A stretch of 44,391 nucleotides of DNA from Escherichia phage vB_EcoS_fPoEco01: sequence record NC_073317.1; one strand, 5' to 3'. This document shows positions 5,015-40,856 of the stretch, piece by piece. The position numbers and the translations under genes are program-made. Below the pieces are notes generated by a model. The model saw only the letters and a program-made list of their open reading frames with translations. It was not told where the DNA came from and made no database searches. Position 1 is the first letter of the stretch. Every line of letters begins with the position of its first letter.

Positions 5015-5018
5015 TAAA

Positions 5019-5048
5019 AGGCCCCATAATGGGGCCTTAGTTTTATTT
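5019..5048. terminator. bidirectional rho-independent terminator
   Basis: Hairpin AGGCCCC-ataat-GGGGCCT flanked by T-rich tracts on both strands, between convergent genes 4556..5014 (+) and 5043..5564 (-). Confidence 0.55.
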
Positions 5049-5564: not shown

Positions 5565-5591
5565 TTATCATCTCCTGTTTAAGTTAACCGA

Positions 5592-5620
5592 ATAGTACCC
5601 TATTATATTGGGGTGTGCAA
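5592..5620 (-). promoter_or_regulatory. class I sigma70-like promoter (TTGCAC-N17-TACTAT) with embedded AATAG-N4-CTATT palindrome
   Basis: Reverse complement reads TTGCACACCCCAATATAATAGGGTACTATTC; near-identical to elements at 15039..15067, 37339..37367 and 38792..38820. Confidence 0.55.
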
Positions 5621-5686
5621 ACTATTTGTTTACGTATTCCAGTTATTCCACTCAATTGTAAACGTTGGAATAAACTATTCGAATAG

Positions 5687-5715
5687 TTGACTTTTCACTG
5701 AAAATATGATAAGCT
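5687..5715 (+). promoter_or_regulatory. sigma70-like promoter (TTGACT-N17-TGnTAAGCT) driving structured RNA element A
   Basis: TTGACT at 5687..5692, extended -10 TGaTAAGCT at 5707..5715; same architecture at 37030..37058. A CTATTCGAATAG palindrome abuts the -35. Confidence 0.5.
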
Positions 5716-5829
5716 CCACCTGAGCTTGTGAAGTATGAACAAGCGACCGCGGCGCGGGCAGGTAACGGAGCGGGACGTAAGTCCTGAGTGTAGTTACGCT
5801 GACGCGTTCGGAAGGGCCATACTCTATTG
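5716..5829 (+). ncRNA. candidate structured RNA element A (promoter-proximal; paired with copy at 37059..37173)
   Basis: About 115 nt highly similar to 37059..37173 with compensatory changes preserving two stems (GUAAC/GUUAC vs GGAAC/GUUCC; GGAC-GUAA-GUCC vs GUGCC-AUUA-GGCAC) and a conserved hairpin GCUUGU...ACAAGC; no ORF. Confidence 0.45.
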
Positions 5830-5895
5830 CTTGTGTAAAAAGTAACTGGTTTACTGAGATTACGCCGTTTCTATGTTTAAATGATAAGGACTAGC

Positions 5896-5919
5896 GCCCC
5901 GCTTTAAGGCGGGGCTTTA
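5896..5919 (+). terminator. rho-independent terminator downstream of RNA element A
   Basis: GCCCCGC-tttaag-GCGGGGC followed by TTTA; lies between RNA element A and the Rz start. Confidence 0.5.
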
Positions 5920-5939
5920 CTTATCGAGAAAGGGGAAAC

Positions 5940-13195: not shown

Positions 13196-13218
13196 AAGGC
13201 CCCTTTCGGGGCCTTTTT
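13196..13218. terminator. bidirectional rho-independent terminator
   Basis: AGGCCCC-tttc-GGGGCCT followed by TTTTT; between + strand HNH gene and the end of the minus-strand moron operon. Confidence 0.55.
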
Positions 13219-14997: not shown

Positions 14998-15038
14998 GGT
15001 GTAGCTCCTGTTTGAGTTAACATTGTTGGTGTAAGTGA

Positions 15039-15067
15039 ATAGTATCCTATTATGTTGGGGTGCGCAA
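15039..15067 (-). promoter_or_regulatory. class I promoter (TTGCGC-N17-TACTAT) with AATAG-N4-CTATT palindrome, driving moron operon
   Basis: Reverse complement TTGCGCACCCCAACATAATAGGATACTATTCAC, nearly identical to 37339..37367. Confidence 0.55.
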
Positions 15068-15175
15068 GTAATGTGATAGAATAATTTTGCGCCTAGTGTC
15101 GCACACGAAAAGCGGGTGGTTCCCGTCTGGCGCATTTACCATTAACCTGTAACCTCTTAACCAAAGGATTAAAGA

Positions 15176-24555: not shown

Positions 24556-24578
24556 AAGGCCCCGAAAGGGGCCTTTTC
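24556..24578 (+). terminator. rho-independent terminator after tailspike gene
   Basis: AGGCCCC-gaaa-GGGGCCT followed by TTTT. Confidence 0.55.
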
Positions 24579-26547: not shown

Positions 26548-26832
26548 TTAACTATAATAGCTCGCTATTAGGTCGTCAACCTGTTTAAACGAACCAACGA
26601 CAAAAACATTTGCACCACGTTTGCTCATCCGCTCGTGCTCTCGTAGCTGATGCGGGTCTGGCTTCGTGTTTTCGTCTTTCTTAACCTCGACAAACCAGAC
26701 TATGCCGCCTGGGAGAATTACCAGCAGGTCGGGAGCACCCACTCTATTTTCGTACGACAATTTGCGTACGAGGCCGCCAATGGCCTCGAATCGGTCTTTT
26801 GCGTATTTCTGTACGCGGCCCTCTTTAGTCAT
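26548..26832 (-). CDS. VRR-NUC domain nuclease
   Basis: About 94 aa from ATG 26832; PDLLVILPGGIVWFVEVKK...QL..H..M...G motif arrangement typical of VRR-NUC. Confidence 0.6.
   Translation of the reverse strand: MTKEGRVQKYAKDRFEAIGGLVRKLSYENRVGAPDLLVILPGGIVWFVEVKKDENTKPDPHQLREHERMSKRGANVFVVGSFKQVDDLIASYYS
26551..26579 (-). promoter_or_regulatory. class II promoter (TTGACG-N17-TATAGT) with AATAG-N4-CTATT palindrome
   Basis: Reverse complement TTGACGACCTAATAGCGAGCTATTATAGT; overlaps the last codons of the VRR-NUC gene; same architecture at 31182..31210 and 33800..33829. Confidence 0.5.
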
Positions 26833-31181: not shown

Positions 31182-31210
31182 ACTATAATAGCTAACTATT
31201 CAGGTGTCAA
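31182..31210 (-). promoter_or_regulatory. class II promoter (TTGACA-N17-TATAGT) with AATAG-N4-CTATT palindrome
   Basis: Reverse complement TTGACACCTGAATAGTTAGCTATTATAGT in the 87-bp gap between 31215..32456 and 30495..31127. Confidence 0.55.
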
Positions 31211-33799: not shown

Positions 33800-33829
33800 A
33801 CTATAATAGTGAACTATTCACGTTGTCAA
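33800..33829 (-). promoter_or_regulatory. class II promoter (TTGACA-N18-TATAGT) with AATAG-N4-CTATT palindrome, divergent from cro-like gene
   Basis: Reverse complement TTGACAACGTGAATAGTTCACTATTATAGT; AATAGTTCACTATT is a perfect 14-bp palindrome. Confidence 0.55.
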
Positions 33830-36452: not shown

Positions 36453-36743
36453 TTATCTTTTAGCCAGACATTCCATCAAATGCTCGTACTTACGGTAATA
36501 ATCTACGACAATCTCATCACCGAAATACTGATACACGTACGCTAAGTGGTCAGAGACATCGATGGAAGCCGACATTGTGCTGAGGCTTCTTAGACTAATC
36601 AACTGCAATTCTTCTGTAACGCAAAACGGCGAATATGAGTCCAGTTTACAGGAAACGTTAAAACACAACGCGTATTCACCTTGCACTAAATAAACCATAT
36701 AAGCATTGTCGTTCTCTTTATCGTGGAAAATTACACCTTTCAT
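36453..36743 (-). CDS. hypothetical protein
   Basis: 96 aa; SD GGAGAA; start overlaps upstream stop. Confidence 0.4.
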   Translation of the reverse strand: MKGVIFHDKENDNAYMVYLVQGEYALCFNVSCKLDSYSPFCVTEELQLISLRSLSTMSASIDVSDHLAYVYQYFGDEIVVDYYRKYEHLMECLAKR

Positions 36744-36922
36744 TTCACGTTCTCCTTAATCCACGCTTCAACTTTATTGCGGTCGAATGTCCCTGGTAAA
36801 CGGCGGCCCATAACCTTAATACAGCAATCCGGGAATTTGCCACTGCGCAACCAGTTATTAATTGTCTGACGTGTCACCCCGATACGTTCAGCTACTTCAT
36901 TCTGGGTCATGTAATGCTGCAT
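36740..36922 (-). CDS. small HTH DNA-binding protein (AlpA/excisionase-like)
   Basis: 60 aa from ATG 36922 (SD GGAGAT); MTQNEVAERIGVTRQTINNWLRSGKFP helix-turn-helix. Confidence 0.55.
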   Translation of the reverse strand: MQHYMTQNEVAERIGVTRQTINNWLRSGKFPDCCIKVMGRRLPGTFDRNKVEAWIKENVK

Positions 36923-37029
36923 TTTTATATCTCCTGTTTGTTTAGTGGAACCGAGTATAGGATAGCGGGAATGTAAAAGCAACCAAAACTGAACACAAAG
37001 TTACTAAGATGCAAAAGATGCTACTGGTA

Positions 37030-37058
37030 TTGACTTTTACTTAAAAATATGCTAAGCT
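37030..37058 (+). promoter_or_regulatory. sigma70-like promoter (TTGACT-N17-TGnTAAGCT) driving structured RNA element B
   Basis: TTGACT 37030..37035, TGcTAAGCT 37050..37058; same architecture as 5687..5715. Confidence 0.5.
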
Positions 37059-37173
37059 TCACTGAGCTTGTGAGATATCGCAAGCGACCGCGGAGCGGCA
37101 GGGAACGCAACGCGTGCCATTAGGCACTTGAGTGTAGTTCCGCTGGCGCTTTCGGAAGGGCCAAAGTCTATTG
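37059..37173 (+). ncRNA. candidate structured RNA element B (second copy of element at 5716..5829)
   Basis: See element A; shared core GAGCUUGUGA...CAAGCGACCGCGG...GAGUGUAGUU.CGCUG.CGC.UUCGGAAGGGCCA with compensatory substitutions in two stems. Confidence 0.45.
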
Positions 37174-37338
37174 TTAATCCCGCCTAAATACCCAAGCCAC
37201 TGATAATTAAAAGTTTCTATAGTTGCCGTAAGCAAGGTAGAGAGTACTTCACTCCGCTGGGGTGGGCTAACGCCCACCCACTGCGTTGCGTACTCTTTTA
37301 AGAAACGAAAGAATCACAACGGCAACGTAACTATTTTC

Positions 37339-37367
37339 TTGCACACCCCAACATAATAGGATACTAT
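37339..37367 (+). promoter_or_regulatory. class I promoter (TTGCAC-N17-TACTAT) with AATAG-N4-CTATT palindrome; start of rightward early operon
   Basis: TTGCACACCCCAACATAATAGGATACTATTCAC, 25 nt upstream of the first early ORF. Confidence 0.55.
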
Positions 37368-37392
37368 TCACTTATCGAAACGAGACAGATGA

Positions 37393-38635: not shown

Positions 38636-38791
38636 TGTTATATTGTAACAATAGTTTGGGATTTTACTGAGTGACTTACGCTGCTACACAGCAGCGTATC
38701 ATTTTTCTCATTTTTGTTCTATTTCACCAAACGCAACAATCGAAGCGACTATTGCAGGAGATGCAACAATACAAACACCAATAAAATTTAC

Positions 38792-38851: not shown

Positions 38852-39034
38852 ATGGTTACTTTGATGATTATGGAGTTCGAAAACAGCGCTGCAACTTACC
38901 GCGAGATGACTATGGCGCAGGCGTATCACACGGCATCACACGGCATCACACGGCATCACACGGCATCACACGGCATCACACGGCATCACACGGCAACTTC
39001 TACAAGGCGCAAATCATCAACTAGTTCGGGGTAA
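38852..39034 (+). CDS. small ORF containing the 7 x 10-bp tandem repeat (coding status uncertain)
   Basis: 60 aa ORF with conserved leader CGAGAGGAGAGGCAGA; codons 25-48 are entirely tandem repeat, giving HTASHGITRH periodicity. Confidence 0.3.
   Translation: MVTLMIMEFENSAATYREMTMAQAYHTASHGITRHHTASHGITRHHTATSTRRKSSTSSG
38925..38994. repeat. perfect tandem repeat, 7 copies of 10-bp unit ATCACACGGC
   Basis: Seven head-to-tail identical copies read directly from the sequence. Confidence 0.9.
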
Positions 39035-40189: not shown

Positions 40190-40372
40190 ATGGTACAGAG
40201 ATATAGCTACAACCCGATGTTCGGGTTTACTCCTGATGTTGAAGGCGGGTTAGTGCTTTACGAAGATTACGCAAAACTCGAAGCCGAGTTACAGAAATAC
40301 AAAGACCAGTTCCCGGATTACGTCGAGTGCGCGAACTGTGGGTCAGTTACACATGTGGAAGGGGTGGAGTGA
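40190..40372 (+). CDS. hypothetical protein (MVQRY paralog 1)
   Basis: ATG 40190 with SD AGGAGA; N-terminus MVQRY and LYEDYAKLEAEL shared with the next gene. Confidence 0.4.
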   Translation: MVQRYSYNPMFGFTPDVEGGLVLYEDYAKLEAELQKYKDQFPDYVECANCGSVTHVEGVE

Positions 40373-40566
40373 TGGTACAGAGGTATGAGGTGGAAAAATG
40401 GGGCCTGCCAGAGCCTGAGATGGCTGAGTACGCATACGGCGATTATGTAGAATACGACGCTTATCTTAAACTGGAAGCAAAGTTACGTGAATTCGCTGAA
40501 CAGGTAATGTACGAACCTTGTTCGAAAGTTACAGAAGAAATGGCCCGCGAGATTCTCGGAATATGA
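40372..40566 (+). CDS. hypothetical protein (MVQRY paralog 2)
   Basis: ATG 40372 overlapping upstream stop (TGATG); MVQRY...YDAYLKLEAKL. Confidence 0.4.
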   Translation: MVQRYEVEKWGLPEPEMAEYAYGDYVEYDAYLKLEAKLREFAEQVMYEPCSKVTEEMAREILGI

Positions 40567-40856
40567 GCCTCGCAACTGACATCCTGAAACGAAGCGGCCT
40601 TGCGCCGCTGTCGCCGAGAGCTAAAACACAGATATACAAGCGCCGCCGTAACGCGCTGTACCCTGAGATTCAAGCCAGACGCAAAGCAGTCCGCGCCTGC
40701 GGATTCCAGAACGGGAAGGCCGTTAACCTGGGTGAGTTTAAAACACAGGAACGCGCAGCAATCGCTAATCGGTTATTTAATTACTGGAAATCGCTGGGGT
40801 ACGATGATATTCCGACGAAACCGCAGAGACGACAATACATCTGGAGACACAAATAA
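40563..40856 (+). CDS. hypothetical basic protein
   Basis: 97 aa from ATG 40563 (ATGA overlap with upstream stop). Confidence 0.35.
   Translation: MSLATDILKRSGLAPLSPRAKTQIYKRRRNALYPEIQARRKAVRACGFQNGKAVNLGEFKTQERAAIANRLFNYWKSLGYDDIPTKPQRRQYIWRHK

Follow-up and report, generated by a model that had tools for sequence, protein, structure and literature searches.

The interval 37030–37173 of the genome of Escherichia phage vB_EcoS_fPoEco01 (NC_073317.1) comprises a sigma-70 promoter followed by a 110-nt RNA (37064–37173, plus strand), the second and diverged copy of a structured element that constitutes an RNA family new to Rfam and is most plausibly a leader RNA controlling transcription elongation. 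The window analysed is the whole stretch of 44,391 nt, the complete genome (about 44 kb) of a virulent Kagunavirus siphophage in the subfamily Guernseyvirinae. At E ≤ 10, a covariance model of the element matches this window at 37064–37173 (copy B; plus strand, 102.5 bits) and at 5722–5829 (copy A; plus strand, 130.3 bits), with no third site. The RNAs of the two copies share 77.7% identity over 112 columns. Nine of their differences fall in paired columns, comprising four double compensatory changes and a single U-A to U-G exchange, and no pair is broken. The initial annotation had placed a structured RNA at 37030–37173 as a second copy and had argued against a chance duplication. Both points are borne out, copy B being a true, diverged second copy. 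The promoter pattern occurs exactly twice in the window (5687 and 37030), where shuffles expect 0.00.

Promoter and transcript of copy B

The promoter P_B (37030–37058, plus strand; TTGACT-N14-TGC-TAAGCT) combines a near-consensus −35 element, read from the sequence as TTGACT (37030–37035), with an extended −10 element, TGCTAAGCT (TGC-TAAGCT; 37050–37058), across a 17-nt spacer, and a transcription start at about 37064–37065 is predicted. The first 34 nt of the interval are promoter DNA, with RNA only thereafter. Because the −10 hexamer, TAAGCT, agrees with the consensus at just three of six positions, P_B is skipped by a generic promoter scan. Among 76 distinct contexts of the element, TTGACT occupies the −35 position in 74 and TGnTAAGCT is present in every one; in all 76, only a few nucleotides separate the start of the RNA from this invariant promoter of the sigma-70 class.

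Directed away from P_B, so that the two predicted transcripts share no sequence, sequence and gene map place a divergent leftward promoter lying back to back with it, TTGCTT-N17-TATACT (36954–36982, minus strand), which may serve the HTH gene (ATG 36922) and the replication operon. The gene map agrees with the earlier placement of copy B between the leftward replication operon and the rightward early operon. No tRNA or tmRNA-like gene is present. A coding reading of the element was rejected: copy B contains a 24-codon open reading frame from ATG 37050, the same frame stops after five codons in copy A, and it is also disrupted by indels that distinguish the two copies.

Fold and covariation

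In copy B, the covariance model places a 5′ hairpin, P1 (37066–73 with 37078–85, plus strand), ahead of a long irregular arm (37088–37155, plus strand) built of P2a (CCG/CGG), P2b (GAGCG/CGCUU), P3 (CAG/CUG and GGAAC/GUUCC, the G at 37142 being bulged out) and a variable tip hairpin, P4 (37114–18 with 37123–27). The tail (37156–73) forms a weak mini-hairpin, GGGC/GUCU, and then continues into AUUG. The minimum free energy of copy B is −49.3 kcal/mol (z = −3.86), as compared with −37.6 kcal/mol for the minus strand. Across the family, the 5′ hairpin P1 begins about 3 nt past the predicted start; P2b takes the form GNGCG/CGCN′U, in which N-N′ covaries as C-G, A-U and U-A; the bulged G of P3 and the internal loops (.. 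/ GAGUG(U)AG) are invariant; and the tail consists of a weak mini-hairpin of the AGGG/CUCU type followed by an invariant AUUG. The P1 loop and the P4 tip vary freely around fixed internal loops, junctions and bulged G.

Relatives for the covariance model were drawn from the phage collection, IMG/VR and metagenomes, giving an alignment of 66 covariance-model matches, 36 of them distinct. Canonical pairs fill 97.4% of the 906 pair cells in the 36 distinct relatives, a figure to be read with the bias toward structure of an alignment fitted to the covariance model; in a control in which the 3′ partners were slid by 1–3 columns, canonical pairing falls to 30–37%. Double-sided changes occur in 9 of 26 pairs (80 cells), and the observed covariation score was reached by none of 500 shuffles. 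When seven variants were folded separately, each gave the same architecture as its minimum-energy structure. The RNA is assigned to the plus strand because G-U pairs, which become A-C on the other strand, are abundant and because minus-strand folds are poorer. The element is, by these measures, a real structured RNA with strong covariation, encoded on the plus strand.

The same data bear on a role at the level of DNA, such as an origin, a packaging site or a protein-binding array, for which the RNA structure would be incidental. The copies do lie in palindrome-rich intergenic control regions, as such a role might predict. It is nevertheless very unlikely, in view of the tolerance of G-U on the plus strand only, the preservation of RNA helices by the compensatory changes and the location of the element exactly at the promoter's transcript start in every genome. 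Another alternative is an RNA processing or stability signal, with the 5′ hairpin and bulged arm protecting the mRNA 5′ end or forming an RNase III-type site like those in the early and late transcripts of T7. In its favour, P1 starts close to the predicted 5′ end, and the long arm, an interrupted helix of some 21 bp containing an asymmetric internal loop, recalls phage RNase III sites in shape. The conservation of loop and junction sequences, however, far exceeds the needs of RNase III cleavage or 5′ protection, and a terminator lies between the element and the coding region, leaving this explanation decidedly unlikely.

Within the 5′ strand of the arm lies an alternative local hairpin, CCGC-GGN-GCGG (37088–37100 in copy B, 5746–5758 in copy A and 648–660 in the related sequence L008), which is mutually exclusive with P2a/P2b and may be a co-transcriptional intermediate or a switch. 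A double change in the ST20 lineage, CCGU-GUC-ACGG, keeps the local hairpin and weakens P2b, which hints at two conformations of the arm. Two other candidate interactions were discarded. Pairing of the P1 loop (GUAUG) with the tail (CAUAC) could form a pseudoknot in copy A but is not kept in copy B or in Golestan-type copies, and an apparent covariation between columns 31 and 105 is an artefact of an unaligned indel in the tail.

Distribution of the family

Rfam 15 gives no match anywhere in the window at the gathering score, and around both copies at E ≤ 10 it returns only chance-level matches (E 0.9–10), none of which overlaps the core fold and among which there is no riboswitch or leader family and no EAR. 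A blastn search of 5,426 E. coli genomes finds no relative of the element, and an origin in, or mimicry of, the host was rejected. In GenBank phages, by comparison, it occupies 220 places in 179 records, the carriers being Escherichia, Salmonella, Raoultella and Shigella phages of the genera Kagunavirus and Jerseyvirus (Guernseyvirinae); an RNA annotation at the element is absent among the phage records listed. True matches from IMG/VR and metagenomes that have a near-full-length parent lie on contigs of about 41–45 kb, accompanied by a few shorter fragments. A degenerate core pattern, searched against one genome per bacterial species, returned 55 matches, 54 of which are chance occurrences in GC-rich taxa. 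The single true match lies on JAEWLW010000073.1 ("MAG: Bacillota bacterium"), a 6.2-kb contig that carries a B-type copy along with the TTGCAC..TACTAT promoter described below; it comes from a Guernseyvirinae phage and was wrongly binned with a Bacillota MAG. The family thus occurs in Guernseyvirinae phages only. A literature search found no description of the element, and the one RNA-seq paper on a Kagunavirus reports gene-level classes only (PMC12645636).

The two copies differ in their distribution. Copy A is universal in the subfamily, and copy B is found in about 41 of the 179 records, roughly a quarter. Phage K1G and Salmonella phage ER1 have copy A only; at the B position (36680–36900 in K1G, 40370–40690 in ER1) they contain another strong sigma-70 promoter and an unrelated leader of 220–300 nt. 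These alternative leaders include a ..GUCUAUU / GCUCUAUU motif that resembles the tail of the element, and K1G shares the hairpin/promoter module downstream of the B position, which looks, from such comparisons, like a cassette site for alternative leader RNAs. Copy B, absent in most relatives and replaced by another leader in K1G and ER1, is therefore dispensable or replaceable. The regulatory role first proposed for the element remains its natural reading, and the accompanying idea of a pair of copies has to be qualified by this uneven occurrence.

Copy A and its terminator

Copy A stands at the head of the second rightward block, which contains the spanin, capsid and tail genes, and follows the promoter P_A (5687–5715, plus strand; TTGACT, a 17-nt spacer and TGA-TAAGCT). 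Beyond it lies a canonical intrinsic terminator, t_A (5896–5924, plus strand), in which GCCCCGC-UUUAAG-GCGGGGC is followed by UUUACUUAU, a short, interrupted U-run, 25 nt ahead of the spanin start (ATG 5940). A terminator is found at +174 in every A-type context, with a variable loop and, in one case, a compensatory change in the stem (GCCCTGC/GCAGGGC). Apart from P_A, no promoter-like site was found on the plus strand between 5092 and 8615. As P_A is the only promoter seen before the spanin, capsid and tail genes, and the conserved t_A precedes the first start codon, capsid expression therefore needs readthrough of t_A.

In a comparison with Salmonella phage ER1, the copy A element is 98.1% identical and its spacer and terminator are each 97% identical, as against 76.7% for the spanin gene and 84% for the major capsid gene. 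The most conserved stretch in this comparison is the non-coding A leader (97–98%), with the neighbouring genes at 77–84%.

These features give weight to the main rival of the cis-acting reading developed below, namely that the copies are two stand-alone sRNA genes. Each would specify a discrete RNA of about 195–235 nt, consisting of element, spacer and 3′ hairpin, that acts in trans, for example by regulating mRNAs of the host or the phage, or by titrating a host protein or a defence factor in the manner of a decoy or sponge. We consider this a genuine possibility, if a rather doubtful one. Copy A has its own promoter and canonical terminator, the terminator stem shows a compensatory change, and the transcript up to that point is the part best preserved between E. 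coli and Salmonella phages. On the other hand, the capsid operon would be left with no visible promoter after copy A; the U-run of t_A is atypical of Hfq-type sRNAs; the complement of the tail, CAATAGAS, has two occurrences in the window, each being an element copy read on its reverse strand, with no excess over chance; and E. coli genomes contain no counterpart to mimic.

The layout of copy A, with promoter, aptamer-sized fold with invariant internal loops, terminator and first gene, is also that of a local attenuator, of which the element would be the sensor domain. Binding of a metabolite, or of a protein from phage or host, would then decide termination at the hairpin, as in a riboswitch or a protein-dependent attenuator, and the local hairpin in the arm, preserved in ST20 by a double change, might provide the second of two conformations. 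Such a device is unlikely here. No Rfam riboswitch or leader family is matched even at E ≤ 10; element and hairpin are 65–90 nt apart, and the intervening sequence differs between A and B; a search for conserved alternative pairing of the element with either arm of the hairpin found none; and the hairpins after B-type copies are unrelated to one another in sequence.

Upstream of P_A lie two palindromes (5643–5686) that are missing upstream of copy B. One, TTATTCCA-N15-TGGAATAA, is centred near −64 of P_A; the other, CTATTCGAATAG, is centred at −41.5, abuts the −35 element and has a half-site, GAATAG, similar to the operator in the TTGCAC..TACTAT promoters. Both are kept in Salmonella phage ER1 and may be activator sites, which would make P_A a regulated late promoter. 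The copy-A spacer also contains a mini-ORF, AUG AUA AGG ACU AGC GCC CCG CUU UAA (5881–5907), which covers the 5′ arm of t_A and has its stop codon in the loop. It lacks a Shine-Dalgarno sequence, has no counterpart after copy B and is probably untranslated; if it were translated, translation would be coupled to termination.

Region downstream of copy B and genome context

The region around copy B is 99% identical to Escherichia phage vB_EcoS_fFiEco02. On the map of that phage, the leftward replication genes extend up to an HTH gene just left of copy B, and the rightward genes that begin just right of it comprise small early genes and then those for holins/endolysin, terminase, portal and head morphogenesis; the claim that each copy heads a rightward transcription unit fits this arrangement, both copies preceding rightward gene blocks. 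No RNA polymerase gene is annotated in this near-identical genome.

Copy B is followed by an irregular 60-nt hairpin (37239–37298, plus strand; −32.6 kcal/mol, z = −4.95) with a base stem of AGAGAGUAC/GUACUCUUU. Nested in it is an inner GC clamp, GGGTGGGC-TAAC-GCCCACCC (RNA: GGGUGGGC-UAAC-GCCCACCC; 37260–37279, plus strand), which is the GC-rich hairpin that had previously been located at about 37259–37281. The longer hairpin is terminator-like, yet it lacks a free U-tract and was not called by a terminator scan, a point against a stand-alone sRNA gene at this position. Behind every B-type copy, at +179 to +200, stands a GC-rich hairpin whose sequence comes in three unrelated versions; taking A and B copies together, one follows every copy at +174 to +200 (76 contexts). 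In favour of sRNA genes, then, each copy forms a complete unit of invariant promoter and GC-rich hairpin in 76 of 76 contexts, the B hairpin has had its sequence replaced three times with its position kept, and the downstream genes after copy B possess a separate promoter.

That promoter, TTGCAC-N17-TACTAT (37339–37367, plus strand), contains a palindrome, AATAG-N4-CTATT, that overlaps its −10 element. It lies 166 nt downstream of copy B, close to the distance of about 170 nt given initially; the first rightward gene starts 35 nt further on (ATG 37402), and a TTGCAC..TACTAT promoter is found downstream of every B-type copy, at +262 to +291. Its previous designation as a "class I promoter" holds for the location; in kind, it is, apart from the palindrome within it, an ordinary promoter of the sigma-70 type and not a phage-polymerase promoter. 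The same motif (tgAATAGTa-ccTATTat-T) has been reported by PHIRE as "phage RNA polymerase promoters" in a related Kagunavirus (PMC9825357). A repeat of 36–40 nt surrounds TTGCAC-N17-TACTAT at 37335–37374 (plus strand), 5585–5620 (minus strand) and 15032–15071 (minus strand), and these are probably a set of early promoters that also contain the operator of a phage repressor. Near-consensus sigma-70 promoters (TTGACA/TTGACG, N17–18, TATAGT), with shared flanks, are located on the minus strand at 26551–26579, 31182–31210 and 33800–33829; the leftward genes are thus apparently served by several strong promoters spaced along the replication block.

Terminator-like sites are present on the plus strand inside the rightward operons at 38677, 2756, 5018, 8287, 12494 and 13196. 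Near-identical hairpins, AAGGCCCC-loop-GGGGCCTT, mark switches of gene orientation at 5018–5038, 13196–13215 and 24556–24575; that at 13196–13215 is terminator-like on both strands and the other two on one strand each. They are likely bidirectional terminators, which an antiterminated polymerase, if there is one, must either read through or respect. Elsewhere in the rightward region, a perfect tandem array of about 7–8 copies of a 10-nt unit, ATCACACGGC, at 38915–39005 within the rightward ORF 38852–39034, encodes a repeated peptide (...ITRHHTASHG...), such that a length change by other than a multiple of three units produces a frameshift.

Proposed mechanism

The reading that we favour, tentatively and with confidence somewhat short of even, is a cis-acting leader RNA that would let the polymerase from its own promoter pass downstream terminators, by analogy with put or nut. 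It is suggested by the position of the fold at the start of transcripts from an invariant promoter and by the two copies that head long rightward blocks with internal terminators. Host RNA polymerase would start at P_B (37030–37058), making copy B the 5′ leader RNA of the transcripts, with an equivalent leader role for copy A behind P_A. The nascent RNA would fold into the short 5′ hairpin and the long bulged arm with its invariant internal loops, and the fold would remain bound to its own polymerase, conferring resistance to pausing and termination either directly, like HK022 put RNA, or via a phage or host factor, as at a nut site. Polymerase from P_A or P_B would then pass the hairpin or terminator some 70–90 nt downstream, along with further co-directional terminators in the rightward operons, reaching, from copy B, the operon that extends from the small early genes to those for lysis, terminase and portal and, from copy A, the spanin, capsid and tail genes. 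The transcription start, the polymerase contact and the effect on termination are those parts of the scheme that we infer; the promoter, the strand, fold, conservation and position of the RNA, and the terminators beyond it, are shown.

A processive mechanism fits better than a local attenuation switch, given that A and B have different spacers ahead of the hairpin and that no alternative pairing joins element and hairpin. Peripheral loops that vary around fixed internal loops, junctions and bulged G are what one would expect of a surface that binds one conserved partner. Several observations count against antitermination in cis. Copy B is absent from most relatives, which use other leaders, and the genes after it would be independent of P_B because of the second promoter between element and genes. 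The whole 200-nt A leader, spacer included, is as highly conserved as the element, which a model of antiterminator plus terminator does not require and which would suit a discrete functional RNA some 200 nt long. If the antiterminator is constitutive, its location immediately ahead of a conserved terminator also calls for some further explanation, for instance insulation or regulation of the promoter. As to a protein partner, a Pfam scan of 10 early ORFs around and downstream of copy B detected HTH_17 and DUF551 only, with no N-like or Q-like protein; small unknown ORFs remain.

A bolder version of the cis-acting reading, which we hold to be distinctly improbable, would make the element a structurally unrelated second class of polymerase-riding antiterminator RNA that drives the Guernseyvirinae lysis and morphogenesis operons without a dedicated protein, perhaps timed by the local hairpin as a folding switch. 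If true, RNA-only processive antitermination would not be peculiar to HK022-like lambdoid phages.

Comparison with known systems

The put RNA of HK022 acts in cis and independently of other factors, binding the zinc-binding domain of the RNA polymerase beta′ subunit and suppressing downstream terminators. The element resembles it in having two diverged copies per genome, each downstream of a sigma-70 promoter that heads a long operon, and in its multi-helix fold with conserved bulges and junctions, variable helix sequence and terminators downstream. The location near +1 is shared with putL, which likewise lies just downstream of PL (PMC9378689). In contrast, the element is about 110 nt long as compared with about 74 nt for put, consists of a short hairpin, one long arm and a conserved single-stranded tail, and is found in virulent Guernseyvirinae siphophages rather than in lambdoid phages. 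Homology between the two was rejected in both directions: a putL/putR model recovers both put sites (93 and 88 bits) and nothing in the window at E ≤ 10, and the element model has no match in the HK022 immunity region.

The late region of lambda is organised as PR′, 6S RNA and tR′, where the Q protein binds DNA and the sigma-paused polymerase and the structure of the leader RNA is not the active element. Copy A is laid out much like this textbook arrangement, with a strong host-type promoter, a leader of about 195 nt and an intrinsic terminator, followed by lysis (spanin) and head and tail genes. It differs in that the RNA fold is under selection and that no Q homologue was recognised in the 10 ORFs tested. 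A sigma-dependent pause at a −10-like sequence in the initial transcript was rejected, AAGTAT being present in A and absent in B.

As with the nut-type sites of lambda and rrn (boxA plus boxB), the element is a leader RNA in which a structured part stands beside a conserved single-stranded tail, ..UCUAUUG, before terminators. Its structured part is, however, far larger than boxB, and an arginine-rich N-like protein was not recognised among the 10 ORFs. The critical positions of boxA are G2, C5 and U6 (PMC3177189). An identification of UCUAUUG as a boxA was discarded, given that the tail, A(C/G/U/A)UCUAUUG, has an A at the equivalent of G2 and a variable position 3. Among the antiterminators of Gram-positive bacteria, the Bacillus EAR element and conAn2 of conjugative elements are also structured RNAs in the 5′ leaders of long operons with internal terminators, and conAn has been described as a leader antiterminator RNA (PMC8191782). 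They belong to different hosts and mobile elements, conAn requires a protein partner, and the element has no Rfam match to EAR.

Implications for the Guernseyvirinae

The Guernseyvirinae, represented here by Kagunavirus and Jerseyvirus, include common coliphages and Salmonella phages that are widely isolated for therapy and biocontrol. They lack an RNA polymerase of their own. If the element modifies the host polymerase, only one other kind of RNA with such an effect in cis would be known in E. coli; if it acts in trans, it would be a conserved phage sRNA. Either way, a covarying RNA at the entry to the late genes offers a handle on late-gene control in the Guernseyvirinae.
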